Of a stretch of 32,936 nucleotides of DNA, positions 16,346 through 32,812 are shown piece after piece. Positions within the stretch are counted from its first letter, which is position 1, and every line of letters starts with the position of its first letter. The position numbers were made by a program, and so were the translations under genes. Origin of the DNA: a virus (lineage: Duplodnaviria > Heunggongvirae > Uroviricota > Caudoviricetes); IMG/VR virus record IMGVR_UViG_3300009132_000002; one strand, 5' to 3'. The notes under the pieces are model-generated. The model saw only the letters and a list, made by a program, of their open reading frames with translations. It had not been told where the DNA came from and did no database searches.

Positions 16346-16660
16346 TTACACCTCTTTAAAATGAATTTCTTCTTTATTTTCTATGGAAGATTCCAATATA
16401 CTTGCTAATACGTCACCGGCGAATGTTTGAAGATCCTCATCTTCTGCAGTAAGATCTGCATCGGGTGTTGTAACAACAGTAAAATCAAATGTTAGTTGCA
16501 CATCATCGTCGTTTTCTACTGATTCTCCACTAACACGAATAGATCCAAAACGAAATACTACTTCATTGTATTCGCCTTCAAGTATGCGAACATTCCACAC
16601 CTCGTCAGCTAGTTCATCTGGTACTAACTCATAATCTTTATTTTCTATATATTTTGGCAT
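16346..16660 (-). CDS. Probable gp40-like head vertex assembly chaperone
   Basis: Acidic 104-aa ORF in the conserved uvsX-40-41 position; call rests mostly on synteny. Confidence 0.55.
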   Translation of the reverse strand: MPKYIENKDYELVPDELADEVWNVRILEGEYNEVVFRFGSIRVSGESVENDDDVQLTFDFTVVTTPDADLTAEDEDLQTFAGDVLASILESSIENKEEIHFKEV

Positions 16661-17706
16661 TATTCTTCAACCACAATTTCATCCATTTCAACAAGAGACT
16701 GATGGCCAATACTATATTGTTTCTTTAGGAAATCTTTAAAATCCGTTTCAGCAAAGATCGGATCCCAAAATTCTTTTTCTAATGTTGCGTCTTGCCTAAC
16801 TTTTCCACCAATTTCTCCAGTAGATTGATCAACTCGACTATACCAACCGTTAGAAGGCTTAGTAACATAACCACCAGCAAGAGCACAGTCCAGGAGACCA
16901 CTATAAGACTTGACCCCACCTTCCCAAGACACAGTAATAGGAATTTTTGACTTTTCTTTAACATATCGTGATTTCTCCACATTAATTACAAAGTGATAGC
17001 CCTGAATTTCAGTGCCTTTTTTATCTTGTTGACGACCAATAATCCAAATATTATCTGCACTATAGTATATACCAGTTCCACCAGATACAATAGCTTTAGG
17101 AAATAAACCAATCTCTTGATATGTATGATTTACTGCAATAAGTGGAATATTCTTCATAGCAAGATATGGTGTACTCATACGGAATAGACCCTTAAGTGCT
17201 TTAGCACGAGACATATCCGCAACTGACTTTTCATTCTTAGCATCTTCTAATTCTTTCTTTGATGCTAAGTTACCAATAGAATCAATAACAACCACAACTT
17301 TATCATTACGATCTAATTCTTCTAGTTGTCCAATTAAATCAAATTTTAATTCTTCAACATTAGTAATAGGCGTATGAAGAACACGAGACGTGTCAATACC
17401 AAATTGCTTAAAATAAGTTTGTGGTGAACCAAACTCTGAATCATAGAATAGCATTACAGCATCTTGATGATGTTTCATATAAGCTGCAGCCATAAGTAAA
17501 GCAAATGAAGTTTTAAAGTGTTTAGAAGGTCCGGCAAGAACTGTGAGACCTGGGGCTAACCCACCATCTACTGAACCAGATAGTGCAACATTAATCATAG
17601 GGACATCTGTTGGAACCATATCTTTTTCATTAAAAAATTTAGACTCAGAAAGAACCGATGTGTGGGATAGTTTTGAGTTCTTTTTGAGTTTGTCCATAAT
17701 TGACAT
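16660..17706 (-). CDS. uvsX: UvsX RecA-like recombinase
   Basis: LAGPSKHFKT, FYDSEFG, IDSIGNLASKKE, ADMSRAK, SGGTGIYYSAD, KSRYVKEKS. Confidence 0.97.
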   Translation of the reverse strand: MSIMDKLKKNSKLSHTSVLSESKFFNEKDMVPTDVPMINVALSGSVDGGLAPGLTVLAGPSKHFKTSFALLMAAAYMKHHQDAVMLFYDSEFGSPQTYFKQFGIDTSRVLHTPITNVEELKFDLIGQLEELDRNDKVVVVIDSIGNLASKKELEDAKNEKSVADMSRAKALKGLFRMSTPYLAMKNIPLIAVNHTYQEIGLFPKAIVSGGTGIYYSADNIWIIGRQQDKKGTEIQGYHFVINVEKSRYVKEKSKIPITVSWEGGVKSYSGLLDCALAGGYVTKPSNGWYSRVDQSTGEIGGKVRQDATLEKEFWDPIFAETDFKDFLKKQYSIGHQSLVEMDEIVVEE

Positions 17707-17751: not shown

Positions 17752-17934
17752 TTATGAGAAATATAAAGTAAAAATATCATATTTTTCTAAAAAATATAAT
17801 GTAGAAAAAATTATGCATATAATAATAATTGATTTAGCAACGACTAATCCTGCAAATACAATAGCTTGAAGAAACCACTTCATTAAAAATAATAAAGCAA
17901 ACAAGCCAATTGTATATGCAAAAAGTTCAAGCAT
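17752..17934 (-). CDS. Small membrane protein
   Basis: 60 aa, two hydrophobic helices. Confidence 0.55.
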   Translation of the reverse strand: MLELFAYTIGLFALLFLMKWFLQAIVFAGLVVAKSIIIICIIFSTLYFLEKYDIFTLYFS

Positions 17935-18766
17935 AGCTTACATTTTGTTCTAACTCACGTGAGTCTTTTTCATATTCTTTTCTATATTCATTATTTGCGC
18001 GGATAACCTCGTTTAAAACAGTAAACTCTTGGTCAGAGAAAGTGTTAAACGCCGACGTGTCTTTTGGGAAACAAGCGCCACCATAACCACGCTTACCATC
18101 AAAACCTGGTGCTCTAGTATGAGATGTACCAATACGTGGATCGGTACCAATAGCATTTACTATATGACCAAAATTTCCACCAAACTTTTCTACTACATCA
18201 TAAAACTGATTAAACCATAAAACTTTGGTTGCAAGAAAACAGTTAAGACCGTACTTGACAAAGCTGGCTTCTGTAGCAGACATGTGAAAAGCTGGACACG
18301 GTTTACATAAACTATATTCTTTATAGATTTCTTCTAATCGTAGAGTGGTTTCTTTATTTCCGCCAAATACGTGCATATCTGGATTTATAAAATCGGAATT
18401 AGCATTAACTTCCGTTAGAAATTCTGGATTGTAAACAACTCTTGAACTTGTGCCGGCACCTTTAGTGAGAGATTTGATAATATCAGGTGTTACTGTGGAT
18501 TTAATTACTATAATACCACTACGTCGTTGTTTAAGTTTTTTTACAGTTTCCACCACAATAGATGAATCAATCTCGCCATTTTTACCCATAGGAGTTGGAA
18601 CAGCCACAAAAGAAACATCTACATCTAGTGATTTAATACTATCGACACTATTTCCATATTTAGGATCAATAATAACTTTAGTACAATTATAATCATTAAA
18701 CCCGTGATCAATAGCTTTACCAACAAAACCATGACCAACAATTGCTATTTTTAATTTAGAACCCAT
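17927..18766 (-). CDS. UDP-glucose/GDP-mannose dehydrogenase family (lacks C-terminal domain)
   Basis: GHGFVG Rossmann motif, VAVPTP, IKSTV, YNPEFLTE, catalytic GYGGACFPKD; start moved to ATG 18766. Confidence 0.9.
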   Translation of the reverse strand: MGSKLKIAIVGHGFVGKAIDHGFNDYNCTKVIIDPKYGNSVDSIKSLDVDVSFVAVPTPMGKNGEIDSSIVVETVKKLKQRRSGIIVIKSTVTPDIIKSLTKGAGTSSRVVYNPEFLTEVNANSDFINPDMHVFGGNKETTLRLEEIYKEYSLCKPCPAFHMSATEASFVKYGLNCFLATKVLWFNQFYDVVEKFGGNFGHIVNAIGTDPRIGTSHTRAPGFDGKRGYGGACFPKDTSAFNTFSDQEFTVLNEVIRANNEYRKEYEKDSRELEQNVSYA

Positions 18767-18848
18767 CGGGATATACTTCCTTATAATATTTACTGATAAG
18801 AGGCTCGCCATTATTTACAAGCCTATTAATTAATTCTTCTACTGATAT

Positions 18849-18877
18849 ATTATAATATAATGCAACAGTTTTGTAAA
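18849..18877 (-). promoter_or_regulatory. Sigma70/early-type promoter
   Basis: TTTACA-17 nt-TATAAT. Confidence 0.7.
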
Positions 18878-18880
18878 GCA

Positions 18881-19837
18881 TTAGTTTACTCCATAATATA
18901 GTTTATACCAAGAAATAAATTTTTCGACACCTTCAGCAATTGAAACTGTAGGTTTATAACCGAGTTTTTGTAGTTTAGTTGTATCAGACCAAGTAGCTTG
19001 AGTATCGGCTGGGTGTTTTGGTACAAGTTTACGTTTAGCTTTACGATCAAGATTAGTTTCAATATGATCAACAAAGTCAACTAATTGGACTTGTTCTCCA
19101 TAACCAATATTATATATCTCATTAAATTCTTCAGTTTCAGATAAAGATTGATTTAAAACAATAACGATACCATTTACAATATCATCAACATATGTAAAGT
19201 CACGAATCATATCGCCATAGTTAAATAATTCAATTTCTTTACCTGCAACAATATTTTTGGTAAAATCAAAGAGTGCCATATCAGGGCGACCCCATGGACC
19301 ATAAACAGTAAAGAAGCGGAGCCCAACTGTTCTAATGATTGAACTAGACATAAACTGTGCTTCATTAGTAAATTTAGTGTAGCCGTACGGATTTAATTGA
19401 TAACCACATTTCTCATCTTCTTTCCATGGTAATTCATTACCAGCCATAGTACATGATGTTGATGCATATATTACGTTTTTAATATTAGCTTCTGTACAAG
19501 CTTCGATTAAATTTTGAGTACCAGTTATATTATTATCAATATATGTTTGTGGTTCTTTTAACGAGTGTCGTACACCTGCATATGCAGCTAGATGAATAAC
19601 AGCATCGGGTTTATTAGCTCCAAAGAAAAGCCTTAACATTGCTTTTTCTTTTAAATCAAGTCGAGTTACTTCAACACCAAGATTCTTTAAATTATTTGCT
19701 CTATCTTCTTTTAAAGAAACATCGTAATAATCATTAAAGTTATCAAAGGCTGACACAGTATGACCTTCATCTATTAACTTTTGAATAAGATGGTAAGCAA
19801 TAAAACCAGCGCCGCCAGTTACGGTTATATGTGACAT
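18881..19837 (-). CDS. NAD-dependent epimerase, UDP-glucuronate 4-epimerase (WcaG/CapI)-like
   Basis: TGGAGFIA, HLAAYAGVRHS, YGYTK, LRFFTVYGPWGRPDMA, RDFTYVDDIV; start moved to ATG 19837. Confidence 0.9.
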   Translation of the reverse strand: MSHITVTGGAGFIAYHLIQKLIDEGHTVSAFDNFNDYYDVSLKEDRANNLKNLGVEVTRLDLKEKAMLRLFFGANKPDAVIHLAAYAGVRHSLKEPQTYIDNNITGTQNLIEACTEANIKNVIYASTSCTMAGNELPWKEDEKCGYQLNPYGYTKFTNEAQFMSSSIIRTVGLRFFTVYGPWGRPDMALFDFTKNIVAGKEIELFNYGDMIRDFTYVDDIVNGIVIVLNQSLSETEEFNEIYNIGYGEQVQLVDFVDHIETNLDRKAKRKLVPKHPADTQATWSDTTKLQKLGYKPTVSIAEGVEKFISWYKLYYGVN

Positions 19838-19858
19838 ATTTTTCTCCTTTATACCTCT

Positions 19859-19887
19859 ATTATACACTATTATGATAACAATGTAAA
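19859..19887 (-). promoter_or_regulatory. Sigma70/early-type promoter
   Basis: TTTACA-17 nt-TATAAT. Confidence 0.7.
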
Positions 19888-20751
19888 CTAAAAAAATTCA
19901 GATAGATCATTACCATTAAAATCTATATCTGAGCCTTTGGGCATTTGAGGATATTTATCCCACACCCGAGACGGCGCTACATGCCATCTTTCATTTTTCT
20001 TTACTAATTTAAAAGCTCCAGGCCAGTATTCTTGCAATTTACGGGACCTATTTAATCTACCTTCACCGGAATGAACAGTATCAGTATTACCACCTTTATA
20101 TTGTCCTGTAGCAGCCTTATTCATTATAAGAGTATTAAATAAAATAGTACAGTAACCTTTATTCAATACTTGTAAACTATAATCGGTATCTTCAATACAA
20201 TCTTCACGATATTTTATATCCAAAGAATTATTTACTAAAACACAACTATATGCTTGTTTATTAATTGCTATATGAGTATCTTTAGTAAAAGCAAACATTA
20301 TGTGACTTAAAGAACAGATTCCAATATTATCAAAATATGATATATAATTTTCTGCTGCTGAAAATATACTTCTTGTGTTTTTTACAACATTCTTTCCGTT
20401 TTCTCTAATACGAAAATCTTTAATATTATCATCTACTTGCCAATGGTAATCAGCGCCTATAGAAATAGAATGGTCTTTACAGGCATTTCTAACATAGCCA
20501 ATTCCTTGGTCATTTTTTTCCATAACTACAATCTTATCCTCAGGATATTCTTTATAGTAATCAGCTGCATCTTGTGGTTCTACCACAACATAGAAATGCA
20601 GATTAACGTCGTCTAAGGCCTTAGTAGTAAGTTTTATTTTACTACGAGCCTTAGACGGAACATAAATTGGATACTTGACTTCTTTCTGAGAATCAAGATT
20701 ATCAATTATTTCTTGTGCTTTGTTTTCTAGCCATTCATTTGTTTTAGGCAT
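19888..20751 (-). CDS. TAGT/GREB1-like (GT-A fold) putative DNA-base glycosyltransferase, copy 2
   Basis: YPIYVPSKAR, GIGYVRN, WQVDDNI (DxD-like), EDTDYSLQVL, KGGNT; ends DLSEFF. Confidence 0.75.
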   Translation of the reverse strand: MPKTNEWLENKAQEIIDNLDSQKEVKYPIYVPSKARSKIKLTTKALDDVNLHFYVVVEPQDAADYYKEYPEDKIVVMEKNDQGIGYVRNACKDHSISIGADYHWQVDDNIKDFRIRENGKNVVKNTRSIFSAAENYISYFDNIGICSLSHIMFAFTKDTHIAINKQAYSCVLVNNSLDIKYREDCIEDTDYSLQVLNKGYCTILFNTLIMNKAATGQYKGGNTDTVHSGEGRLNRSRKLQEYWPGAFKLVKKNERWHVAPSRVWDKYPQMPKGSDIDFNGNDLSEFF

Positions 20752-20775
20752 TTTTATATACTACTTTAGCCATGA

Positions 20776-21285
20776 TTAAATCTTACACCTAACAAAAATC
20801 AGATTTTCACCTTGCTCTTCCGCTTCTGCTGTTAAAAGAGTTTCTACTTCATTATTTTGTGCAAGTTGAAGAACTTTTGTTTCATTAGTAATAGGGCAAA
20901 AATATTCTGTAGTTATACGTGGAACTGAAAATCCATAAACATGAATCTTAGTATTAAAATCAAATTCTTGTTTCATGCCCGTAATAATTTTACGGTTTGT
21001 TCTTTCATTCTTAGGATCATTTCCGTATTGTTTAAGGCGACCTTTCCATCCATTTGATGATCCAGCTTTACCAATTTTTAATAATTGATCATTTACATAC
21101 ATTCCATATACAATGTCACCCATTGCTTTAAAATCACGAGGTTCAAGTCCTTCGGCATTAGTGAACACTAATCTATTATAAGTGCGTGAAGGGTTATTAT
21201 TGGTTAAATTTGTTGTATGTTCATGGATTGTAAAATATCCAAGATAAACACCGAATTTTTTGATATTTGTAGAAACATTAGTCAT
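20776..21285 (-). CDS. GIY-YIG nuclease, T4 endonuclease II (DenA)-like
   Basis: IVYGMYVNDQLLKIGKA...KGRLKQY resembles T4 EndoII VIYAIAINDELVYIGKT...RKRINYY; start moved to ATG 21285 behind AAGGA. Confidence 0.6.
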   Translation of the reverse strand: MTNVSTNIKKFGVYLGYFTIHEHTTNLTNNNPSRTYNRLVFTNAEGLEPRDFKAMGDIVYGMYVNDQLLKIGKAGSSNGWKGRLKQYGNDPKNERTNRKIITGMKQEFDFNTKIHVYGFSVPRITTEYFCPITNETKVLQLAQNNEVETLLTAEAEEQGENLIFVRCKI

Positions 21286-21349
21286 TTTGAATTCCTTCAG
21301 ATTCTTTTCATAAGATAAACATAACACATTTTTAAGAGCTTGTAAACCC

Positions 21350-21610
21350 TTAAATTGCATATTGTCTATGATCTTTGATATACCACTTCTGTGTTACAGG
21401 CAAGCCATATTCATCTTCGTCAATACAAATTACAACCACGGTCTTTTTGACATTGCCGTAGCGGTAACCATCGCATACCCAGATTTTGTGTGGAAAGTCT
21501 TCATTAAAAGAAGTAATCGGATCATCGTTAACAGAATACTCAAAATAATTACCTACCTCTTTTTCAACAAAAACACCGATAGGGTTAGATGTGTGAGTCC
21601 AGTGTGCCAT
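21350..21610 (-). CDS. Conserved hypothetical phage protein
   Basis: 86 aa, GGAG RBS, directly behind early promoter copy B. Confidence 0.75.
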   Translation of the reverse strand: MAHWTHTSNPIGVFVEKEVGNYFEYSVNDDPITSFNEDFPHKIWVCDGYRYGNVKKTVVVICIDEDEYGLPVTQKWYIKDHRQYAI

Positions 21611-21639
21611 AAGAAGTCTCCGATTCTATTTACTCTTAC

Positions 21640-21681
21640 AATATAACATAAAACAAATAGCTTGTAAACCCCTAAAATGAA
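21640..21681 (-). promoter_or_regulatory. Early promoter with conserved 16-bp upstream element (copy B)
   Basis: CATTTTAGGGGTTTACA-17 nt-TATATT. Confidence 0.8.
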
Positions 21682-21686
21682 CTTTT

Positions 21687-22625
21687 TTAAATATTTCTGT
21701 ATGCATATTCTATAGCACGATCAGCTTCTACATTAAGAGGTCTATTCTCATATCTCTTAGCTGTATCAGCATCTAGTTGCTTGATTAGTTCTACAATCTC
21801 AAACGTATTTATAGGATATTGTCTCTTAATTGCACTACTTGCTATTGAAACCATAATCTTATAAACCATAGCATATCTTCCAGTATTATCAACATATGCT
21901 ATATTCTTAAAATCTCTGATAAGATTTTTATTCACGAATGGACAATCTTCATAGTTAGTCCAACTAACACCAGTATTCTCCATTTTATTCTTACGATATT
22001 CTATGATAGATTTTTGCATCTCTGTTGGTAATCTATCTAAGAACGTACCAGTCTTTTTTTCCTGATATGAATGACTCGCCATTAACTCTTGAGGATTTAT
22101 ATAACTACCGCCAGTATTAGTAAAAATAAAGTTGAAAGCGCCAGAGTACGAACCAGGGATATAATACATTCGTGATAGATCCTTAGTTTGCGCATCGCCA
22201 ATTGCTTGGAGTTCTGTGTTGAGTGCGTACCAAAAATGTCTGATATTATCTCCTCTAACTCTCTCTGTAAGTGGGAAGACCAAACGAAACTTTGGTAAAC
22301 TTTCTCTGCTGCTAGCAGTACTATAGCAAACAAAATAGTACTTACCATAGATACTAATAAGATCATCTTTTAAATCTCCTTTAAACTCATGGTCATCTAC
22401 ATCCATAGCTGCCCATCCTGCCCAGTCAACTACATTTTTATTTGCTCTTGTAGTATCTTCAATATAAGTTGCTGGCGATATAAGCTGAGCAGCTTTTTTA
22501 TCTTTAAGTTTTCTCTTAGACAATTTATATAGAAATTCTTCAAACTGAGGAAAGCCAGAAAAACTCATTTTCTTATGAGTTTTATTATCATATATAGATT
22601 TAAAGAATGTTGCAGAAACTTCCAT
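21687..22625 (-). CDS. AEP-superfamily primase/primase-polymerase-like protein
   Basis: ISPATY, AMDVDD (motif I), YSTAS...PKFRLVFPL, DLSRMYYIP; helical C-terminal domain. Confidence 0.7.
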   Translation of the reverse strand: MEVSATFFKSIYDNKTHKKMSFSGFPQFEEFLYKLSKRKLKDKKAAQLISPATYIEDTTRANKNVVDWAGWAAMDVDDHEFKGDLKDDLISIYGKYYFVCYSTASSRESLPKFRLVFPLTERVRGDNIRHFWYALNTELQAIGDAQTKDLSRMYYIPGSYSGAFNFIFTNTGGSYINPQELMASHSYQEKKTGTFLDRLPTEMQKSIIEYRKNKMENTGVSWTNYEDCPFVNKNLIRDFKNIAYVDNTGRYAMVYKIMVSIASSAIKRQYPINTFEIVELIKQLDADTAKRYENRPLNVEADRAIEYAYRNI

Positions 22626-22627
22626 AA

Positions 22628-22909
22628 TTAACTCGGTATCTGATCTTCATCCATCCATCGTAAAAGATTAGCTTCATTAAAATCAACTGCTGGATAAAAT
22701 GTACCACGTGATTTTCTAGTAAGATTAGGCTGACCAATCTTTTGTGCAAATTCTTTTAAATCTTGTTCTGTTCTAAATCGAATTACAATAGCAGCGTAAT
22801 CTTCACGATTTTCTTGTTCAAATTCTGGCATATCATCCCAACCCATTGCGTCGAGATCGTCTTCTTGTCCATCTAATACAAATAAGTTAGCGCCTTTAGG
22901 TTTGCTCAT
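22628..22909 (-). CDS. Small acidic protein coupled to the glycosyltransferase gene
   Basis: WDDMPEFEQE...IVIRFRTEQDLKEFAQKIGQ; overlaps the upstream GT stop; start ATG 22909. Confidence 0.7.
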   Translation of the reverse strand: MSKPKGANLFVLDGQEDDLDAMGWDDMPEFEQENREDYAAIVIRFRTEQDLKEFAQKIGQPNLTRKSRGTFYPAVDFNEANLLRWMDEDQIPS

Positions 22910-23831
22910 AATAAGGGTTCTCCGCATTTCCAAATTCTGTTGTTGCTTTTTTATATTGATCCATAGTTAATGCATGTAATTTCATACCATATTCATTAGT
23001 ACCGCCTTTAATTACATAGTCATCACGATAAATAAGTTTATTCTTTTTAAATGGGCTATAATCAACATGATGATGCCATCTATTATATCTTTGAACAACT
23101 TTAACCAAGTCTGGATGTTGTTCTACAAGTGCTTGTGCAAATTGTAAACGATTATCTCCATCCACATACACGTTATCTGTATTACCACCACCCATAACAA
23201 GAGTTGTAATTTTACCACATAAGAATGCATTAAATAGAATTGTGCACCAGTCATCTTTTAGAATATTTAAACTTAGATCAGTGTCTTCATTATATTTACC
23301 GCGCCATCTGTGTTTAATATCATTAGATAACAAAATACAGGAATAAATCCTAGTATTAAGTGTGTATGGCTTTTTCTTCTGAGAAGCTGGAGCAAAATAC
23401 TGATAGTTCATACCAGACATTTTAACATTTTTATAGCGATCTGTAAAGTCTTCACATAATCTAATTATTGTACCAGACGTCACTTTAGTTTTTCGGTTTT
23501 TATGCAATCTATAAAAGTGTTTAATATTATCATCCATAATCCAATGACGTTCGTGTCCTTCTTTTATAGAATGTTCCCAGACAAAGTTACGTGCTGGAAT
23601 AGAACCACCAATTCTACCTTTATTATCAGGGATTGCATACTTTGGGTTTTCTCTAAACCCAGGCGGTAGAGTTAGAATCTTATCGGCTGAAATGCCTTTA
23701 TTATAATCATCAAACTCGCTTTCTTCAATAACAATTTTATATGGTACTCTAATCTCATCAAGAGTTTTAGAGGTAAGCCGTGAATCGGCTCTACCCTTAG
23801 AGATAATATAAATTGGATATTTTGGTTGCAT
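22896..23831 (-). CDS. TAGT/GREB1-like putative DNA-base glycosyltransferase, copy 1
   Basis: YPIYIISKGR, GSIPARN, WIMDDNI, NTRIYSCIL, NEDTDLSL, GGGNTD; clear paralog of 19888..20751. Confidence 0.78.
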   Translation of the reverse strand: MQPKYPIYIISKGRADSRLTSKTLDEIRVPYKIVIEESEFDDYNKGISADKILTLPPGFRENPKYAIPDNKGRIGGSIPARNFVWEHSIKEGHERHWIMDDNIKHFYRLHKNRKTKVTSGTIIRLCEDFTDRYKNVKMSGMNYQYFAPASQKKKPYTLNTRIYSCILLSNDIKHRWRGKYNEDTDLSLNILKDDWCTILFNAFLCGKITTLVMGGGNTDNVYVDGDNRLQFAQALVEQHPDLVKVVQRYNRWHHHVDYSPFKKNKLIYRDDYVIKGGTNEYGMKLHALTMDQYKKATTEFGNAENPYYEQT

Positions 23832-24124
23832 TAATTATCACCTTCTTTTACAAAGACACCATCTACCATCTTACCTCTACGATCCTTAATATCGTTATAG
23901 GCTACTTCAAGACATTCTTCAAGACTGATATTATTTCTTTCCATGATATTAATAAGAACAACCATAATATCTCCGCAGTCATCTCTAATATCTTTACCCT
24001 TACAAATATTATCTGATAGTTCACCCATTTCTTGAATGAGTTTCATATACTGATCTTTATCTGTAGAACCTTCAATAAGATTTCTATCGTAGTGCCACTG
24101 AATAATTTTTTCTTCATAAATCAT
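23831..24124 (-). CDS. MazG-like nucleotide pyrophosphohydrolase
   Basis: KLIQEMGEL...DDCGDIMVVL, EVAYNDIKDRRG; start ATG 24124, since the track start lies inside the promoter. Confidence 0.85.
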   Translation of the reverse strand: MIYEEKIIQWHYDRNLIEGSTDKDQYMKLIQEMGELSDNICKGKDIRDDCGDIMVVLINIMERNNISLEECLEVAYNDIKDRRGKMVDGVFVKEGDN

Positions 24125-24130
24125 TTTTAT

Positions 24131-24159
24131 ATTATATCCTATTTTGATCAATTTGTAAA
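24131..24159 (-). promoter_or_regulatory. Sigma70/early-type promoter
   Basis: TTTACA-17 nt-TATAAT. Confidence 0.7.
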
Positions 24160-24162
24160 GTA

Positions 24163-24591
24163 TTATTTATGATTGTCACAAACACGACTTCTTAGACCAC
24201 TTGAACTAAATCTATGATCACGCTTATTAAAATATAGATCAATACCTCTATTACGGCATTCGTCCTTACCAGTAAAATTTTGTGTTCTATATTCTTCACC
24301 TAGTATTCTAACATTAATTGGATACATATTAATTATATCAAGCAGATCTGCCTCCGTACAATAAACAATAACTTCATCAACGTATTTTACTGCTTCAAGC
24401 TGTGCTTGTCTTTCGACAATAGTTTGAATAGGAGAATTTTTTTCTTTTCTATCATAACTAGGATCTACTTGTAAAGCAGCAATAAGCCAATCACACTGTG
24501 ACTTAGCTTCTCTTAACATCATCACATGACCAGCATGTAATAAATCAAATGTACTAGCTGTTAAACCTACCTTCATTTCCATGGCCCCCAA
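24163..24591 (-). CDS. Cytidylyltransferase (glycerol-3-phosphate CTase/TagD-like)
   Basis: TFDLLHAGH (HxGH), VKYVDEVI, GEEY, RFSSSGLR. Confidence 0.88.
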   Translation of the reverse strand: MGAMEMKVGLTASTFDLLHAGHVMMLREAKSQCDWLIAALQVDPSYDRKEKNSPIQTIVERQAQLEAVKYVDEVIVYCTEADLLDIINMYPINVRILGEEYRTQNFTGKDECRNRGIDLYFNKRDHRFSSSGLRSRVCDNHK

Positions 24592-24618
24592 ATATTTCCT
24601 TCTTTTAAATCATATGGA

Positions 24619-24810
24619 TTAGTCATCATCGTCGTCCTCGCATTCTTCTACTTCGCACGCTTCTGCAGTAAAATGTTCGTCACATTGGATGACGGCGCTA
24701 CTAAGATTTTTGCTTACTAACAAAATGTTACTAACCTCAGAAAGAGCTGCATCTATATCCTCGGCTTCTACTAGACAGTCAAAGGTACATCTAATTTCAT
24801 ATTTTTTCAT
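24619..24810 (-). CDS. Small acidic hypothetical protein
   Basis: ATG 24810 follows the upstream stop; ends in a poly-D tract. Confidence 0.55.
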   Translation of the reverse strand: MKKYEIRCTFDCLVEAEDIDAALSEVSNILLVSKNLSSAVIQCDEHFTAEACEVEECEDDDDD

Positions 24811-24811
24811 C

Positions 24812-25033
24812 TTACCACTCCGGCGCTGAATATTCGCTGTGCTTCTTATACAATATACTACCATCTAATCCATAAGCCGGACAGATTGAAATATATTCGG
24901 GCATACCATCCTCATCATGATCACCAGCTTCACCGCAAATAAAATATGCTCCACTCTTTTCAGGTTCAGAGTGAATTAAAATTTTCTTTAGTATCTGAAA
25001 CTGCTCATATTCCTTTTCAGTTATTTCAGGCAT
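24812..25033 (-). CDS. Hypothetical protein
   Basis: 73 aa, AAGGAG RBS, 1-nt overlap with upstream gene. Confidence 0.7.
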   Translation of the reverse strand: MPEITEKEYEQFQILKKILIHSEPEKSGAYFICGEAGDHDEDGMPEYISICPAYGLDGSILYKKHSEYSAPEW

Positions 25034-25287
25034 TACTTATTCTCCTTTTCAAACCTCAAAGTGAAACCAGCCAAGACCACTTCATTATAGGGCTTGTACA
25101 TTACCCAATTGGCCTTGGCCGAGACACCTGCAAGCGCGTGCCTTAAAGCTATAGCTGATTTATAACCTTCATCGATTGAGGAATACTCTAAAGTGTCTGG
25201 AGGACTTATATCGTGTTTCATAAAAGCCCTTCTTAAATTCATCAACGCTGTGCCTATATCGTTGATTATTTCATCTGGTTCACTCAT
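25033..25287 (-). CDS. Hypothetical protein
   Basis: 84 aa, AAGGAG RBS. Confidence 0.7.
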   Translation of the reverse strand: MSEPDEIINDIGTALMNLRRAFMKHDISPPDTLEYSSIDEGYKSAIALRHALAGVSAKANWVMYKPYNEVVLAGFTLRFEKENK

Positions 25288-25301
25288 GGGGTTGCTCCTT
25301 T

Positions 25302-25541
25302 TTAATTTGAATGTGGTTTATAACTGTATCCTACTTTTTCGAGATATTTACTGTCGTTGTCCCAATAGACCTTCCCTGCTTGCCACCAAATATTGTCGCC
25401 AACCGAAGGCATCTCTGAGGCATTGCGTACGTCCACACAGCACTCATTGACACACCAAATATCACGTGGTGTTTCAACACACCAAAGCCGCGTAACGTCA
25501 GGGCCTTTGTGCGTAATACAGATAATCCAACCACCAACCAT
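25302..25541 (-). CDS. Hypothetical protein
   Basis: 79 aa, TAATG coupling to upstream gene, Trp/Cys-rich. Confidence 0.7.
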   Translation of the reverse strand: MVGGWIICITHKGPDVTRLWCVETPRDIWCVNECCVDVRNASEMPSVGDNIWWQAGKVYWDNDSKYLEKVGYSYKPHSN

Positions 25542-25732
25542 TATTCATTTTCTTTTTTAAGCCAGTCTGAAATAGCTTCAAGCAGCTTTGGTGCAGTCAT
25601 ATAGTGAGCATCAAAATCTCCGAGTGCATTTCTCGTCTCAATAACCACTCGATCAGCACCTTCAAGAGCCTGAACAAACACGTCAAAGAAGTTACGCTGG
25701 TCTTCTTCACAATCTTCATCATATTCATTCAT
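25541..25732 (-). CDS. Hypothetical protein
   Basis: 63 aa, GGAG RBS, ends KENE. Confidence 0.65.
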   Translation of the reverse strand: MNEYDEDCEEDQRNFFDVFVQALEGADRVVIETRNALGDFDAHYMTAPKLLEAISDWLKKENE

Positions 25733-25743
25733 GGGATTTCTCC

Positions 25744-26010
25744 TTAGTCTTCATACTTGGTAACTACTTCATAATCACCGGCTTCTAATTGATCAATAAT
25801 TTTAATTTCTTGGTCAACTCTCAACAAATTCCCTAACTCAGAAGATAGATCGATCAACTTTTCTTGGATTTGCTTAATACAAAGTTGGTGATACTCATCA
25901 TCTCGTTGAAGTTGATTGATCTGCCCTTTTATTTGATTAATTCTTTCATCAGCATCGGTGAGATCTCTGAATTTCTCAACTCTTTCATGGTTAAATACAA
26001 AATCCATCAT
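25744..26010 (-). CDS. Hypothetical coiled-coil protein
   Basis: 88 aa, AAGGAG RBS inside the shared junction motif. Confidence 0.7.
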   Translation of the reverse strand: MMDFVFNHERVEKFRDLTDADERINQIKGQINQLQRDDEYHQLCIKQIQEKLIDLSSELGNLLRVDQEIKIIDQLEAGDYEVVTKYED

Positions 26011-26153
26011 TCATTCTCCTTATCGCAGTCCTTTAGAGCGGCAAGTGCTTTAGTGAAGTGCTGCCATTTGTAAACCGCATTCAACGCATCTTTATCACTA
26101 ATGCGCTTCTGATAATTTTCGATATATACCCATTCGCTTTTAATTTCATCCAT
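26007..26153 (-). CDS. Small hypothetical protein (48 aa), missed by ORF track
   Basis: MDEIKSEWVYIENYQKRISDKDALNAVYKWQHFTKALAALKDCDKENE; AAGGAG RBS; ATGA overlap with next gene. Confidence 0.65.
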   Translation of the reverse strand: MDEIKSEWVYIENYQKRISDKDALNAVYKWQHFTKALAALKDCDKENE

Positions 26154-26583
26154 TATTCATTCTCCTTTAAATCGATCTAGCACGAAGTTGAACACGCTTG
26201 GTTGTAAAAATCAGAGTTCCTCAAGCAACGACTCCAGTTCTTTGATCTGACCTTCCCATTGAATCAGTTGATATGGATGATTTTTGCCATCCTGTTTGTC
26301 TGTATATAATTCCCAATATAAATCGTCCATTTTATTAATTGTAATTATAGCGCCAGCGAGTTTTTCCTGTAGCTCTTTGATTTTAGCTTCATGGATGTCT
26401 GCGCGGATGTATTCTTTAAAGCAGTCATCTGGTGGTTCTGGGCTAGTAGAGTGGGCAATAAAACAAGCAGTGCTTACCTCATTACTCTTTAAGGCTTGGG
26501 TCCAAAGACTGTTTGGCATATCAATCATGAGATTGCTCCTTATATACCCATTCGCTTTTAATTTCATCCATTATTCATTCTCC
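26123..26583. repeat. 43-bp exact direct repeat (26123-26165 and 26541-26583)
   Basis: tatatacccattcgcttttaatttcatccattattcattctcc twice, 418 bp apart, flanking one ORF. Confidence 0.95.
26211..26528 (-). CDS. Hypothetical coiled-coil protein between the 43-bp repeats
   Basis: AAGGAG followed by ATG at 26528 (MIDMPNSL...); track start 26567 lies inside the repeat. Confidence 0.65.
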   Translation of the reverse strand: MIDMPNSLWTQALKSNEVSTACFIAHSTSPEPPDDCFKEYIRADIHEAKIKELQEKLAGAIITINKMDDLYWELYTDKQDGKNHPYQLIQWEGQIKELESLLEEL

Positions 26584-27107
26584 CTTGAGTAATTTCTACT
26601 CCATCTCGTGTAATCTCCAGAGCGTCCTATCCACTCATAAACTTGACCGCTCGGTAGACGTATTAAATCGCCAATGTGGTTCCCTTTTTTTGGAAAGTCA
26701 TCGACCAATCTTGGAGTTTTCATTTCACCTGCATCGGCGGGCTTTCCAAGACGAGCAGCTTTAACACCATCGGCATACATTCTTTTGATCGCCTCAGTAT
26801 AGTCATCAAATGCCATCCCCCATTTGGGCTCTGCGTACTTCTTAAGCTGCGCTTCGGCTTCTTCAGCCCGAGTTAGTGCCACATGATTATCAGTCACAAC
26901 TCGCAACAATCCAGCAACTTGCGCCTCTAGTTCTTTAATGCGCTCGGCGTTATACTTTGTTAGCGAGTGCGGATAATGGCCGCAGGTTGGGTGGTGTCTT
27001 TTTTCACCGCCATGAAATGATAGGCACCCAGCCTCACAAGGTCCATCATATTCATGAGCGTCTTCTGACATAGCCTTTTCATCCATTGGTTCATTCATAT
27101 CACTCAT
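26571..27107 (-). CDS. Hypothetical protein (Cys/His motif plus coiled coil)
   Basis: 178 aa; CEAGC...HHPTCGHYPH; ends RENE. Confidence 0.7.
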   Translation of the reverse strand: MSDMNEPMDEKAMSEDAHEYDGPCEAGCLSFHGGEKRHHPTCGHYPHSLTKYNAERIKELEAQVAGLLRVVTDNHVALTRAEEAEAQLKKYAEPKWGMAFDDYTEAIKRMYADGVKAARLGKPADAGEMKTPRLVDDFPKKGNHIGDLIRLPSGQVYEWIGRSGDYTRWSRNYSRENE

Positions 27108-27385
27108 AGCGTTTCCTCGTTAAGAATTTTTAATGCCCAATTAACATTTTCAAGAAGCTCAATATCTGAGGCGCTAACATCCCATCCCCGTTGCATTTCT
27201 AAAGAGACATAGTACGCTCTGTGATACCCTAGCCCAATGGCCATTGCTGCTTTTTCTCTTGTGTTAAATTTGTTTATAATTTCAATTCTTTTTTTATCAA
27301 CAGGATCTAAAGAGCGTACCTGATAGTCTTGATAGTTGTAGCCCATTATTATTCTCCCTAGCCTTATTTTCTCTTCCACATCCAT
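27104..27385 (-). CDS. Hypothetical protein
   Basis: 93 aa, ATGA overlap with next gene. Confidence 0.6.
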   Translation of the reverse strand: MDVEEKIRLGRIIMGYNYQDYQVRSLDPVDKKRIEIINKFNTREKAAMAIGLGYHRAYYVSLEMQRGWDVSASDIELLENVNWALKILNEETL

Positions 27386-27459
27386 ATGTTAAAACATATG
27401 ACGCCAAGACTAATAGTGATTGCGACTATGTTTACTATTCCTGCATCACTTTCATTCAT
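27364..27459 (-). CDS. Small single-pass membrane peptide (31 aa), missed by ORF track
   Basis: MNESDAGIVNIVAITISLGVICFNIWMWKRK; GGAG RBS; first ORF after early promoter copy C. Confidence 0.5.
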   Translation of the reverse strand: MNESDAGIVNIVAITISLGVICFNIWMWKRK

Positions 27460-29132: not shown

Positions 29133-29477
29133 TTATCCATATCCTACAGTTTCACGTTCAATATCATTGTGATTAAACTCAGCCCAATACAATTCATATG
29201 CAATACCTGACTCTAAACATTCGAATTGATGATATAAGCCAGGCTTTACTTTATGATAATCGCCTTCATATAAAATAGTTTCATCAACAAGATCATAGTC
29301 TTTTTGCCAAACACGAACTAACATTACGCCCTTTTCAACAAAGAAACCATTCCATTTAAATTCATGGAGGTGTTTAGAACACACTCCGCCTTTATTCATT
29401 TGAATACGGTGAAACTCTAAAGCACCATTTGCTTCAATAAGTTCTGTCACACCCCATACTTTGCCAGCCTTAGTCAT
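29133..29477 (-). CDS. Cupin-fold protein (mannose-6-phosphate isomerase type II-like)
   Basis: KVWG, cupin motif 1 SKHLHEFKWNGFFVEKG and motif 2 VKPGLYHQF. Confidence 0.75.
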   Translation of the reverse strand: MTKAGKVWGVTELIEANGALEFHRIQMNKGGVCSKHLHEFKWNGFFVEKGVMLVRVWQKDYDLVDETILYEGDYHKVKPGLYHQFECLESGIAYELYWAEFNHNDIERETVGYG

Positions 29478-29500: not shown

Positions 29501-29529
29501 ATTATATCACACCTACATACTTATGTAAA
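29501..29529 (-). promoter_or_regulatory. Sigma70/early-type promoter
   Basis: TTTACA-17 nt-TATAAT with TG extension. Confidence 0.75.
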
Positions 29530-30233
29530 CCACTATTTTCAATTGCAAATAATATTCTTTGCGTATCCTTCCAGTCTTTTACCTTATAATTACAAGAACC
29601 ATCGTTCCTTTGTTCAATTTCATCAGCCAAAGGATAATCGTTGCCACCATATTCCATCTTATCACCAAAAAATGAGATTGGACCTTTAATAAAATCAGCC
29701 ACCTGTCTTTTATCAGAATTTAAGCGTAAAATATCAATGCCTGTTTCACCTGCGACCTGTGCCCTATAATAGGAAAATGTTTGATTAAATCTACGAGCAA
29801 TGTCTTTTCTTTCGTTTTTATGCTGATCCCATTGTGTATATAAAAATCTTTGTTCGAAATCTGCACCTCTGCCAACAATACTAAAATTTACTAATCCGGG
29901 TCGATATTCAATATGTTGTCCAGTTCTTATATTAAACTTACTAGCAGTTAACTCTTTTTTTAGCCAATCAACAGCATCACGAGGAAGATCCCATGTATTA
30001 GTATAAATTTCTTCTCCATTTTGCCAAATGCTATTACCGCTACAATTAAAGCATTTAATAACACTTTCACATATTTTACTACCAACCTGCTGTATTGTTT
30101 TCTCGTAATCAGATCCGGTTACAAGATATACATTATACTTTTCTATAAATTTCAAAAAGAATTTTTCAAAGTCTCTATCCATTCTCATTCGGCTTGGTGT
30201 TAAAGTTCCGTCTACATCAAATACATAATTCAT
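29502..30233 (-). CDS. HAD-IIB phosphomannomutase (eukaryotic PMM-like)
   Basis: YVFDVDGTLT, LVTGSD, IEYRPGLVNFSIVGR, FFGDK...GGNDYP; ATG 30233 overlaps the gp43 stop (ATGA). Confidence 0.85.
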   Translation of the reverse strand: MNYVFDVDGTLTPSRMRMDRDFEKFFLKFIEKYNVYLVTGSDYEKTIQQVGSKICESVIKCFNCSGNSIWQNGEEIYTNTWDLPRDAVDWLKKELTASKFNIRTGQHIEYRPGLVNFSIVGRGADFEQRFLYTQWDQHKNERKDIARRFNQTFSYYRAQVAGETGIDILRLNSDKRQVADFIKGPISFFGDKMEYGGNDYPLADEIEQRNDGSCNYKVKDWKDTQRILFAIENSGLHKYVGVI

Positions 30234-32812
30234 CCAAAAAAGTCCTCCAGTGTTTGCACATCCTTGACAGACCATCCAACGGCTTCAAGAATAGGATTAA
30301 GTGGTTCAATAAAAGTTTTTTCAAATTGCATCTCATAGTCTACATATTTATGCAGATTTAATTCTTCAGGCAGATAGTCAGGAAAGGAAATTACATTCTC
30401 ACGAATAGGATTCGGAAGCTTCATATATGTAAATTTAATCTTTTCTCCGTTTTGTATCATAATATATTTCTTATCTAGTGCCTTATCTTTAACGTGATGG
30501 TTATATAAAAGTGCACCACGAACGTGAATAGGTGTGGTTTTTATTGTTGCTGTTTGATTACCCGACGACCATTGTTTAGAGTGATTTGAGTTACAATAAA
30601 TATTCTTCTTATGCGAAAACTTACTAATATCAGAAACACCACGTGGAAATGCCACGGCTTCAGGTGGTAAAGATTTAAACTTTTCTTTAAAGTCATTAAT
30701 ATATCTACGAGTTTCTGTTTCAGTACTAGTAATAATAACCTTAAATATTTCTTTAAACTTTTCTCGGACTACCTCAGGAGTTGATGATTTAATAGCCTCA
30801 ATACCCATCATCTTTAACTTAGGTTCTGCATATTGAACACCTTCATTATTGTGTACGTTAAGTATATAGCGTTTTTTTGCAGTCCATATACCACGATCAG
30901 CAATAACTTCTCTGCCCATTTCCATGCGTGGAGTATAACCATTAAGTCTATGATACAAACCGTCATACGCTTTAGCAATAATTTTCTCAAAGTGGTCTTG
31001 ACATAGTTTATCAATGGCTTTTACTGGATCTTTTGGTTTTAGTTTAGAAACAAGAGGTCCAAAATTAATATAAACTGAATCTGTATCAATAGCAATAACA
31101 TAATCAAAATCATCAGTCTTAAGGATCTTATTCATCTCTTGATTAATAGCACGCTCTGCCCACTTGATGGAAAGTTGACCAGTTAAGGTTACACTCTCAG
31201 CAAGAGCATTATCAAAGTATTTAAAATGTTTATTAGCAAGAGCGCCATAAAGAGAATTAAGTAAAATCTTAATTGACATTTGGTTATTTTCTAGCTGGTT
31301 AATTTCTGCTTCAAGATATGAAGATTTTGTTTTTTCATATTGTGATTTGGCATCCAACATCTTTTTCTTAATTACACTTCTTTCCGAATAGTAATCAACA
31401 ATAAGTTCTGGAATTACACCTTGCTTTTCTCTTGAGAAAGGAACACCACTTGCACAAACAGAATATTCGCTATCTACTTGAGTTTCACCATTTAAATAAT
31501 AATCAACACCTTGTTGGAATGTTCTCCAAGTTTTATTACGAATAATAGTCTCTGGAGATATATTAGATTGTACAATAATATTTGGATATAGAGAATTTAA
31601 ATCGAACGATACTACCCAGTCATGTGCACCGACTTGAGGATCTTTTACATATCCGCCCTCGATAATGTTAGGATTAGAATTGTTTACATAAGCAACTCTT
31701 TGTATTTGTTCTACTGGAGATACAATGTTTTTTGAAAGAAGTCTTCGATAAAGAATTGACTCCCAGATAGATGTTGTACCAAATGTTTCAGAAAGATTAG
31801 TACCCGCTCTGTAAGCCATAGTCATTGCTAAGTTAATAAGACCCATTTTTTGATCAATACGATCTACAAGTTGAACATCCTTAATATTATAATCAATAAA
31901 TTTTTGATGGTCATTCTTATATAAAGTATACAAATTACCATGTTCTTCATATGATAGTTTCTTTTCTCCAAGAACGGTATGTGCTACGTGATCTAGTTTA
32001 TACGATTCTTGAGTTCCATATGAATATCCAAACTTTTTAAATAGTTCAAGATAATCTGCTTGTTGAATACCAACAATCTCATGATTAACCTGAGGTCTGC
32101 CCATGATTGTGGTATTTCTTTCATTAACAAGTTTCCACGGGGATAGTTTATTAGCAGCTTCTTCCGTACCAATAATTTTAATACGATTAACAAGATATGG
32201 AATATCAAAAAAACGAATATGCCAGCCAGTAATAATATCAGGATAATTTTTAGTCCAATATGTTAAGAATGAAGCTAAAAGATGATTCTCAGATTCACAG
32301 TGATGATATTGTATCTGTTCACCTCTCATGTCAAGCTCAGTTTTTGCAGGATCATACTCGTCTAAACCCCAGACTTGATATATCGAAGATTTACTAGACT
32401 TGAGAGTAATAGATATAATTGGATATGCTGCTTGTTCCGGAACAGGAAATCCATCATCCGAAGCAACCTCTATATCAAAGTTTACTACATTTATACTACT
32501 TGGATTAAATTTAATATCATCAGGAAACTTATCTGCAATAAACTGATGAATATAATTACGTGTGCCGTATATCTTTACACCATCCATTTCTGAATACTGT
32601 TCAAGAAATTCTTTAGCTTCACGCATATTCTCAAATTGTACAGGAGATATATTACCCCCGTCAAATGATTTTATTTCTGTGGGATCTTTAGATGCCACCC
32701 AGAATTTTGGTTTAAATTTATAACGTTGATTTATTGGTGTACCGTTAGGGGAATATCCACGATAAAGAATAGAATTGCCATAACGGTTCACAGAAGTGTA
32801 GAATGAATTCAA
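30230..32812 (-). CDS. 43: T4 gp43-like family B DNA polymerase
   Basis: Exo FDIEV, SFDLNSLYP, KILLNSLYG, AIDTDS, KKRY; C-terminal clamp peptide TLEDFFG. Confidence 0.98.
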   Translation of the reverse strand: MNSFYTSVNRYGNSILYRGYSPNGTPINQRYKFKPKFWVASKDPTEIKSFDGGNISPVQFENMREAKEFLEQYSEMDGVKIYGTRNYIHQFIADKFPDDIKFNPSSINVVNFDIEVASDDGFPVPEQAAYPIISITLKSSKSSIYQVWGLDEYDPAKTELDMRGEQIQYHHCESENHLLASFLTYWTKNYPDIITGWHIRFFDIPYLVNRIKIIGTEEAANKLSPWKLVNERNTTIMGRPQVNHEIVGIQQADYLELFKKFGYSYGTQESYKLDHVAHTVLGEKKLSYEEHGNLYTLYKNDHQKFIDYNIKDVQLVDRIDQKMGLINLAMTMAYRAGTNLSETFGTTSIWESILYRRLLSKNIVSPVEQIQRVAYVNNSNPNIIEGGYVKDPQVGAHDWVVSFDLNSLYPNIIVQSNISPETIIRNKTWRTFQQGVDYYLNGETQVDSEYSVCASGVPFSREKQGVIPELIVDYYSERSVIKKKMLDAKSQYEKTKSSYLEAEINQLENNQMSIKILLNSLYGALANKHFKYFDNALAESVTLTGQLSIKWAERAINQEMNKILKTDDFDYVIAIDTDSVYINFGPLVSKLKPKDPVKAIDKLCQDHFEKIIAKAYDGLYHRLNGYTPRMEMGREVIADRGIWTAKKRYILNVHNNEGVQYAEPKLKMMGIEAIKSSTPEVVREKFKEIFKVIITSTETETRRYINDFKEKFKSLPPEAVAFPRGVSDISKFSHKKNIYCNSNHSKQWSSGNQTATIKTTPIHVRGALLYNHHVKDKALDKKYIMIQNGEKIKFTYMKLPNPIRENVISFPDYLPEELNLHKYVDYEMQFEKTFIEPLNPILEAVGWSVKDVQTLEDFFG

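Follow-up and report, generated by a model that had tools for sequence, protein, structure and literature searches.

A 32,936-nucleotide stretch of viral DNA (Caudoviricetes; IMG/VR record IMGVR_UViG_3300009132_000002), here called the window, appears to encode a pathway that decorates phage DNA with an acidic sugar. The interval between the recombinase gene uvsX and the DNA polymerase gene gp43 is probably a post-replicative DNA-glycosylation cluster, in which the phage itself would make a uronate donor and in which no enzyme that would create the acceptor base was recognized. We give this reading, drawn from sequence comparison, a probability of about 0.55. It is based on the identities of the genes, their active-site motifs, synteny, co-occurrence in related viruses, and a common C-terminal tail.

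The window covers part of the genome of a marine T4-like phage, with nearly all of its genes on the minus strand. Its gp43 shares 54% identity with the polymerase of C48C1, a phage of the Kyanoviridae, and about 45% with cyanomyovirus polymerases, and a megablast search of the window against phages returned zero matches. In order of transcription from gp43 to uvsX, the interval holds genes for a phosphomannomutase-like enzyme and a cupin, about 4 kb of small open reading frames (ORFs), and then genes for a cytidylyltransferase-like enzyme, MazG, the glycosyltransferase TAGT1, a 93-residue protein, a primase-like protein, an 86-residue protein, a nuclease-like protein of 169 residues, a second glycosyltransferase (TAGT2), an epimerase, a UDP-glucose dehydrogenase (UGDH)-family enzyme, and a 60-residue membrane peptide (Table 1). 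The equivalent interval of T4 reads uvsX-segA-b-gt-42-imm-43, and the uvsX and gp43 borders bear out the proposal of the first-pass annotation, made from the sequence alone, that this is the T4 beta-gt/gp42 locus. The genes that it named there (UGDH-like, epimerase-like, two TAGTs, nuclease, MazG, and cytidylyltransferase) are likewise all present on the minus strand, at the coordinates given there. Absent from its account are the primase-like gene in mid-interval, the small TAGT1 partner gene, and the phosphomannomutase-like and cupin genes beside gp43. For comparison we used a proxy genome, G001 (IMGVR_UViG_3300047369_000650; 177.5 kb, 86% complete by CheckV), which is collinear with the window at 85-90% DNA identity, and a table of the genes that surround the UGDH homologue in 80 IMG/VR loci.

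Table 1. Genes of the uvsX-gp43 interval, its borders, and ThyX, in window coordinates
Feature	Position	Strand	Evidence and remarks
ThyX	13738-14442	-	
UvsX recombinase	16660..17706	-	phrog_97 7e-92; one border of the locus
Compact UDP-glucose/GDP-mannose-dehydrogenase-family enzyme (UGDH), 279 aa	17927..18766	-	PF03721 3.5e-17, PF00984 4.3e-16
UDP-glucuronate 4-epimerase-like short-chain dehydrogenase/reductase, 318 aa from the ATG common to orthologues	18881..19837 (longer start 19867)	-	PF01370 1.4e-51
TAGT2, GT-A DNA-type glycosyltransferase	19888..20751	-	PF20691 2.4e-35; tail NDLSEFF; swappable slot
GIY-YIG-like nuclease, 169 aa	20776..21285	-	Atlas features restriction endonuclease/GIY-YIG 0.95-0.96; variable cassette
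86-aa protein	21350..21610	-	phrog_23785; variable cassette
Primase-like protein (PriCT/BT4734-like), 312 aa	21687..22625	-	phrog_9765 3.9e-53
Small TAGT1 partner, 93 aa	22628..22909	-	overlaps TAGT1 3' end; W..MPEF motif
TAGT1, GT-A DNA-type glycosyltransferase	22896..23831	-	PF20691 2.6e-42, phrog_842 2.3e-45; conserved, no clamp tail
MazG-like nucleotide pyrophosphohydrolase	23831..24151	-	phrog_1992 4.3e-38, phrog_715 4.6e-35; PF03819 below cut-off
Cytidylyltransferase-like nucleotidyltransferase	24163..24591	-	PF01467 1.8e-11; HxGH motif
Small cupin	29133..29477	-	PF07883 5.5e-5, below cut-off
Eukaryotic-type phosphomannomutase-like HAD enzyme	29502..30275	-	PF03332 1.5e-20; PDB phosphomannomutases 1e-23; adjoins gp43
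gp43 DNA polymerase	30230..32812	-	C-terminus TLEDFFG, reference for the clamp-type tail

How the phage would make a uronate donor is suggested by two genes that stand side by side next to uvsX, an arrangement found in about 80 related viral contigs. The UGDH consists of an NAD-binding domain and a central catalytic domain, with the Rossmann domain shortened by about 36 residues relative to PDB 4a7p. Its listed ORF extends to 18811, yet the Rossmann motif MGSKLKIAIVGHGFVG begins at 18766, and the start was set there from the sequence. Alignment to 4a7p shows that the PEFLxE, K..N, and GGxCFPKD motifs are retained, that is, the catalytic Cys, Lys, Asn, and Glu. The compact length is kept across the 80 loci, down to 37% identity, and thus the short enzyme represents a real family rather than a truncation. 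The best solved relatives of the epimerase are PDB 5u4q (2e-80), which was deposited under the name dTDP-glucose 4,6-dehydratase and which we take to be of the Klebsiella UDP-galacturonate epimerase type, and the Bacillus cereus UDP-glucuronate 4-epimerase 6zl6 (8e-44). When aligned to the latter, the protein keeps T126, S127, Y149, K153, T178, and R185 as well as the NAD-binding GxxGxxG and the S/T-Y-K triad; T126, S127, T178, and R185 bind the carboxylate, and S128, replaced by Cys, is the sole listed exception. R185 grips the carboxylate of UDP-galacturonate, and loss of that interaction yields a decarboxylase (PMC12338863). Because the carboxylate-binding residues, R185 included, are retained, assignment as a uronate 4-epimerase, already suggested in the first-pass annotation, is well supported at the level of sequence.

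The enzymes that would transfer the sugar belong to a family whose characterized phage members act on DNA. Both TAGTs match PF20691 far above its cut-off (122.8 and 145.5 bits; cut-off, 27.5), in line with the two paralogous transferases named in the first-pass annotation, and they are 33% identical to each other. The GT-A motifs SKGR/SKAR, HW..DDN, and (N/I)EDTD are invariant in both proteins and in eight relatives, and the R...DDN...ED of the pair is the motif set of phage and trypanosome DNA GT-A enzymes. TAGT1 is 93-98% identical across the clade, and its identity to the TAGTs of Aeromonas, Vibrio, and Tenacibaculum phages is 45-49%. In Aeh1, Kuja, PTm1, POP12, and other cultured phages, TAGT carries a fused N-terminal domain, of which the 93-residue ORF that overlaps TAGT1 encodes a homologue (E of 5.7e-15 for a profile of the fused N termini; 1.4e-7 by blastp against POP12), and thus TAGT1 and the ORF look like a split form of the two-domain proteins.

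A second indication that DNA is the substrate comes from the C terminus of TAGT2. Polymerases of the group end in (T/S)LE(D/A)FF(G/V/A), and the T4 polymerase ends in ASLDFLFG, its gp45-binding tail. Both the TAGT2 of the window and a second TAGT2 allele found in relatives end in NDLSEFF. Similar tails are borne by all alpha-glucosyltransferase (alpha-GT)-like transferases of related loci (QGLEEFFx), by nearly all of their C5-methyltransferases (TLEAFF), and, in C48C1, by Dam (STLDAFFG) and a TET/JBP protein (ISLEEFFV); looser versions end a GT-B transferase (LHLENFMI) and a gp55-like late sigma factor (DLSDFLE). A strict pattern, L[ESDAQ][EDASQ]FF, occurs in 3 of 189 ORFs of the proxy genome, where 0.035 are expected by chance, and across all loci it is limited to the polymerase, the alpha-GT-like proteins, C5-methyltransferases, TAGT2, and a 113-residue protein. 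The tail is probably a sliding-clamp hook, and the T4 alpha-GT has been found experimentally to bind gp45 (PMC13216743). When gp45 was modeled in complex with the C-terminal tail of the G001 allele of TAGT2, the score was 0.31 against a mark of 0.34, which weighs neither way. We conclude that a polymerase-type tail on TAGT2 is good indirect evidence that it acts on DNA at the clamp. The 113-residue protein (9709-10050, minus strand) has a DNA-ligase-like N-terminal NAD-binding (Ia) domain (PF22745, 5e-8), ends in ATLEDFF, and is kept in G001 and other relatives; such a stand-alone ligase Ia domain may also be tethered to the clamp.

The same observations bear on whether the locus might instead consist of auxiliary metabolic genes that remodel host surface glycans or glycosylate proteins. 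GREB1, an animal relative of the TAGTs, glycosylates a protein, and the lack of an acceptor-making enzyme in this lineage would be expected if DNA were not the target. Characterized phage TAGT/GT-A members act on DNA, however, the polymerase-type tail of TAGT2 is otherwise found on DNA enzymes only, the locus is the DNA-modification locus of T4 and RB69, and sister lineages join the same sugar genes to gp42, alpha-GT, C5-methyltransferase, or TET. A target other than DNA thus seems doubtful to us.

The transferase next to the epimerase is exchanged among otherwise similar phages. Among phages whose UGDH shares 91% identity or more, three alternatives occupy the position directly upstream of the epimerase gene: the TAGT2 of the window, which is unique and at most 54% identical to any other copy; the second TAGT2 allele (G001, L002, L005, L007-9, L012, and L014); or a 393-residue GT-B enzyme (PF00534/PF13439; L006, L010, L011, L013, L015, L017-19, and L022). 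Indeed, a transferase always adjoins the epimerase, be it TAGT2, the second allele, the GT-B allele, or an alpha-GT-like gene. Between the window and G001, the UGDH, epimerase, TAGT1, MazG, nucleotidyltransferase, and TAGT1 partner are 93-98% identical, whereas TAGT2, the nuclease (63%), and the 86-residue protein (60%) are only 52-63% identical, and comparison of the sequences indicates that these three form an exchangeable cassette. Turnover of the transferase beside a constant donor module fits diversifying pressure from defenses that recognize modified DNA.

Active exchange of this kind also speaks to the idea that the locus is a decaying remnant, in which a lineage that lost gp42, alpha-GT, and C5-methyltransferase carries leftover sugar genes that modify nothing. 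The acceptor genes are indeed missing where the sister clade retains them, but the conserved proteins are 93-98% identical at a DNA identity of 85-90%, which argues for purifying selection. Moreover, the reading frames are all intact, the catalytic motifs are retained, and the slot is refilled by new alleles that retain the tail. We consider a remnant very unlikely.

What the nuclease of the cassette does could be either of two things. It has no Pfam match, tblastn against phages found no match, and the best Foldseek hits, to Hpy188I (probability 0.99, E of 8e-3) and T4 EndoII (probability 0.95), are weak (E of 8e-3 to 3e-2) and come from an AF2 model with a pLDDT of 56; the residues VYGMY...KIGKAG...R...E are discernible in the alignment. 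The EndoII-like identity first proposed for it is therefore favored by the GIY-YIG resemblance in Atlas and Foldseek and tempered by the missing Pfam match, the low-confidence model, and a Seg-like alternative: it could be EndoII-like or a homing nuclease of the Seg type by which the cassette moves. Short repeats (about 45-75 bp, with 86-98% identity) are found at widely separated sites (G001 147727-147795 and 124949-125023; L104 2520-2594; window 11269-11341 and 26177-26221), and one G001 copy lies between the primase-like gene and the 86-residue ORF. The repeats may serve regulation or recombination where cassettes begin and end.

Related lineages pair the same sugar genes with enzymes of DNA modification. 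A sister clade (UGDH 57-72% identical) has the order cupin, nucleotidyltransferase, ThyA-family gene, sometimes radical-SAM genes, alpha-GT-like gene, epimerase, UGDH, C5-cytosine methyltransferase, and uvsX. Its alpha-GT-like protein (415 residues) belongs to the T4 alpha-glucosyltransferase family (PF11440, 3e-32), and its ThyA-family protein shares 50% identity with T4 gp42 and 55% with gp42s of Klebsiella phages. The sequence MRSND...G..ND of the ThyA-family protein has, as does T4 gp42, Asp at both diagnostic positions; the RB69 5-hydroxy-dCMP synthase has Asn at the first (criterion from PMC13326640). Given the T4-type Asp residues and the identity to gp42, the protein is a dCMP hydroxymethylase, and the sister clade is a stronger candidate than the window for uronate-modified 5-hydroxymethylcytosine (hmC). 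We note that gp42 together with a C5-methyltransferase is an odd combination, and that the sister loci (L037 1-12000, L023-L040, L051-L055, and L061) also carry a phosphoenolpyruvate carboxykinase gene, a DAHP/KDO8P-synthase-family gene, and two radical-SAM genes.

Two further lineages make other combinations. In L041, from another T4-like lineage, TAGT, epimerase, and UGDH genes are adjacent, with start and stop bases in common, and lie between ligase and gp45 in the replication module. The complete genome of C48C1 has the epimerase-UGDH pair beside uvsX and neither a TAGT nor a ThyA-family gene. It does encode a TET/JBP dioxygenase of 472 residues (PF12851, 3.3e-17; L117 184-1602, equivalent to OQ984149.1 49583-51001) that is annotated as hypothetical and is followed by a 344-residue gene and a UDP-galactopyranose mutase (PF03275, 5.6e-52). 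As no C5-methyltransferase was seen next to it, the dioxygenase may oxidize thymine. Thus, with gp42 in one lineage and TET/JBP in another, the same donor module is combined with differing acceptor enzymes. Among cultured phages, Vibrio phage Kuja (L097, NC_048827.1; Ackermannviridae) has two tandem TAGTs with the N-terminal partner domain and a UDP-glucose dehydrogenase elsewhere, and it is a candidate for uronate-bearing DNA.

Several results weigh against the proposed uronate pathway, and the first concern the donor and its distance from TAGT1. No match to PF03720, the C-terminal UDP-binding domain, was found in the UGDH, which stops about 15 residues past the central domain, and NCBIfam scores (TIGR03026, 2.3e-43) are far under the cut-offs. 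The 60-residue ORF that follows the UGDH gene was considered as the missing domain and rejected, as it encodes a membrane peptide; this strongly hydrophobic peptide (17752-17934, minus strand) lies between UGDH and uvsX and overlaps the UGDH stop by 8 bases. The dehydrogenase reaction assigned at first, from UDP-glucose to UDP-glucuronate, thus stands as to its catalytic motifs, and for want of a UDP-binding domain we only infer the step itself. A possibility is that the enzyme would oxidize a hexose after its placement on DNA. Moreover, TAGT1 is parted from the epimerase by the primase-like gene. That 312-residue protein was considered as a transferase and rejected, being primase-like and widespread: it has 3253 homologues, its Atlas neighbors carry PriCT_1/BT4734-like_N, and it is syntenic in C48C1. 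It is probably a replication gene outside the sugar pathway.

DNA might therefore be glycosylated with a sugar that is not a uronate, either from host UDP-glucose or from a product of the phosphomannomutase, cupin, and nucleotidyltransferase, with the UGDH and epimerase serving another purpose or substrate. The T6 TAGT uses UDP-glucose, and C48C1 has the epimerase-UGDH pair without any TAGT, which agree with such a scheme as do the incomplete, below-cut-off dehydrogenase and the position of TAGT1. Against the scheme, a transferase always abuts the epimerase, the TAGT, epimerase, and UGDH genes of L041 share start and stop bases, and the epimerase retains uronate-specific residues. Finally, published subclass II transferases need a partner epimerase, and one such pair yields hexuronate-5hmC. 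We regard a nonuronic sugar as quite unlikely.

The remaining results that tell against a uronate on DNA concern the acceptor. In the proxy genome, about 14% of which lies outside the search, no match was found to PF00303, PF12851, PF00145, PF13640, PF13759, PF03171, or PF01702, families that cover ThyA/gp42, TET/JBP, C5-methyltransferase, three further 2-oxoglutarate-dependent oxygenase families, and TGT. Control genomes gave no signal with PF12851, so the search was repeated at maximum sensitivity, the queries being the C48C1 TET protein itself and a gp42 profile built from the sister clade; six-frame translations of the window, of G001, and of eight contigs reaching beyond G001 gave nothing better than an E of about 1. 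The 10 kb past the end of G001 held no relevant Pfam family. In Aeh1, the nearest cultured TAGT carrier, the sole match above the ThyA-family cut-off is of canonical thymidylate-synthase strength, and Aeh1 seems to be without a gp42-type gene. The target of its transferase is listed as "unknown base" (PMC8056088). ThyA-family matches in cultured TAGT phages were considered as an acceptor route and rejected, several being of canonical thymidylate-synthase strength. The first-pass annotation was thus right that the window holds no recognizable gp42, TET, or other acceptor enzyme; the hydroxymethylase, TET/JBP, or C5-methyltransferase that it allowed for elsewhere in the genome was not found in the proxy. 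Its preference for cytosine as the target has no basis in this lineage, given a 177.5-kb relative without gp42/ThyA, TET/JBP, or C5-methyltransferase.

How DNA could be glycosylated by such a phage invites a further suggestion. The lineage may do so without a known hydroxylated-pyrimidine pathway, either because an enzyme that makes a new acceptor goes unrecognized among the small conserved ORFs or because TAGT1 and its partner use a base or position not known to be glycosylated. We think this unlikely. If it were true, the same puzzle would apply to the TAGT-bearing phages of Aeromonas, Vibrio, and Tenacibaculum, the target base of which is listed as unknown. Taken together, what stands of the uronic acid hypermodification first proposed is a sugar-nucleotide and glycosyltransferase cluster at the T4/RB69 locus, the operon coupling in related phages of the dehydrogenase-epimerase pair to DNA-type transferases and, in one lineage, to gp42, and the TAGT2 tail; what does not yet stand are the acceptor enzyme and the full dehydrogenase step.

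How the pathway would operate can be outlined from the gene identities. The compact dehydrogenase would convert UDP-glucose to UDP-glucuronate, and the 4-epimerase would convert that to UDP-galacturonate. A second activated group may come from the cupin acting with the phosphomannomutase-like and cytidylyltransferase-like enzymes. Two TAGT-family GT-A transferases would then place sugars on DNA, TAGT1 working with its split-off partner domain and TAGT2 probably held on the gp45 sliding clamp through its polymerase-like C-terminal tail. The three interchangeable transferases of the slot suggest an arms race with host defenses, and the GIY-YIG nuclease may either cut DNA that lacks the modification, as would an EndoII-like enzyme, or drive exchange of the cassette, as would a Seg-like one.

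The accessory enzymes are less specific. The nucleotidyltransferase matches rfaE_dom_II (2e-19) and TagD (6e-17), both below cut-off, such that heptose-1-phosphate adenylyltransferase and glycerol-3-phosphate cytidylyltransferase score about equally, and its best PDB matches are the alcohol-phosphate cytidylyltransferases for ethanolamine phosphate (3e-18) and TagD (4e-12). The substrate could be an alcohol phosphate or a sugar 1-phosphate. In the sister clade, copies with 64-91% identity immediately precede the gp42-like gene, and in the 80-locus table the cupin travels with the nucleotidyltransferase. The cupin is a possible sugar isomerase, and a PDB sequence search with it returned nothing useful. 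The MazG-like protein has a possible role, judged by its family, as a dCTPase-type enzyme; the gene adjoins TAGT1, but MazG is common among marine T4-like phages.

Other features of the window were noted. Four near-identical promoter-like sites (TTTACA-N17-TATAAT, 11 of 12 matches) on the minus strand, at 29529-29501, 24159-24131, 19887-19859, and 18877-18849, directly precede the genes for the cupin, MazG, the epimerase, and the dehydrogenase, respectively, and a fifth, weaker site lies upstream of the 86-residue ORF. The sites would be compatible with early, sigma-70-type expression of separate small units. The 4.1 kb or so of small ORFs at 24576-28686 is missing from the otherwise collinear G001, and GC content is 0.40-0.42 at about 25-27 kb compared to about 0.33 elsewhere. 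The ORF at 28623-28988 has a subthreshold match to a ribosome-inactivating-protein family (E of 0.0018) that is probably due to chance. Two minus-strand ORFs, 11608-12156 and 12101-12658, overlap by 56 bases, and the downstream ORF aligns with the C-terminal half of phrog_799 (1e-33), a family of phage DNA methyltransferases, and also gives a weak Eco57I-type match. G001 has the same split, which would thus reflect either two genuine genes or a programmed frameshift. Finally, a 222-residue protein adjoining ThyX (12672-13340, minus strand) has weak phosphoribosyltransferase-like matches only (PF00156, 0.004; PRTase-CE, 0.01).

DNA hypermodification is a main route by which phages escape restriction and CRISPR, and it is a source of enzymes with which to label and sequence modified DNA. 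New here are a compact dehydrogenase and an epimerase that a marine group of T4-like phages encodes where T4 and RB69 have their modification locus, a donor module combined with three acceptor strategies, clamp-type tails on modifying enzymes, turnover of a transferase slot, and a lineage that has transferases but no known acceptor route. The group offers a natural experiment in which the same phage-made uronate donor occurs with gp42, with TET/JBP, or with an unrecognized acceptor route. At least four transferase types in total, including TAGT, GT-B, and alpha-GT-like enzymes, accompany it, and the slot is hot-swappable among near-identical phages. A common clamp-type tail on transferases, methyltransferases, and TET suggests a general means by which modification of DNA is tied to the replication fork. 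The acceptor that is missing here relates to a question already open for Aeromonas phages Aeh1 and 65.

Phage DNA that bears uronic acids has precedents, contrary to the statement in the first-pass annotation that none had been described. In the DNA of Bacillus phage SP-15, the base 5-dihydroxypentyluracil bears phosphoglucuronate and glucose, and a UDP-glucose dehydrogenase is among the products of the phage (PMC5977210). Native SP-15 DNA carries a uronic acid, as is proposed here, and SP-15 encodes a phosphomannomutase and glycosyltransferases as well as the dehydrogenase, which is a tblastn match of the window UGDH. Unlike the window, SP-15 modifies a thymine-derived base, attaches the uronate via a phosphodiester, belongs to an unrelated phage family, and has neither a TAGT nor an epimerase. 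Second, Pyle et al. (2023; bioRxiv 10.1101/2023.12.21.572611) reconstituted hexuronate-5hmC in Escherichia coli from two metavirome clusters, one of which depended on its epimerase. GT57, of contig 57, and its partner epimerase made the product, and the GT-A enzymes of the study have the motifs R...DDD...ED. Judged by motifs and gene arrangement, the subclass II clusters of that study resemble the window, with a JGT/TAGT-like GT-A enzyme next to a short-chain dehydrogenase/reductase epimerase, the signature R...DD(D/N)...ED, and a hexuronic acid predicted on the base. Theirs, however, draw on host UDP-glucuronate and adjoin the C5-methyltransferase and TET-type dioxygenase genes by which 5hmC is made, whereas the window has no methyltransferase or TET, its own compact dehydrogenase, and two TAGTs, one with a clamp-type tail.

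Among T4-like phages, the whole arabinosylation cluster of RB69 lies in the uvsX-gp43 interval (PMC13326640). The arabinosyl-5-hydroxycytosine cluster of RB69 and DLP3 described there is like the window in its location and in bringing together a sugar isomerase, a HAD enzyme, a nucleotidyltransferase, and several transferases. The two differ in a ThyA-type 5-hydroxy-dCMP synthase, which RB69 has and the window lacks, in the transferases, which are GT-B in RB69 and TAGT GT-A enzymes in the window, and in the sugar pathway, which is one for arabinose in RB69 and one for a uronate in the window. With T4, T2, and T6 the window shares its locus and the TAGT family, which includes the T2/T6 enzyme that adds a second glucose to glucosyl-hmC. 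A TAGT2 held on the clamp would parallel the interaction of the T4 alpha-GT with gp45 (PMC13216743), the nuclease stands next to a transferase as segA stands next to b-gt, and true gp42-like and alpha-GT-like genes are present in the sister clade. The window lineage differs from T4, T2, and T6 in being without gp42, in a probably acidic donor of the phage's own making, and in carrying the clamp-type tail on a TAGT rather than on an alpha-GT.

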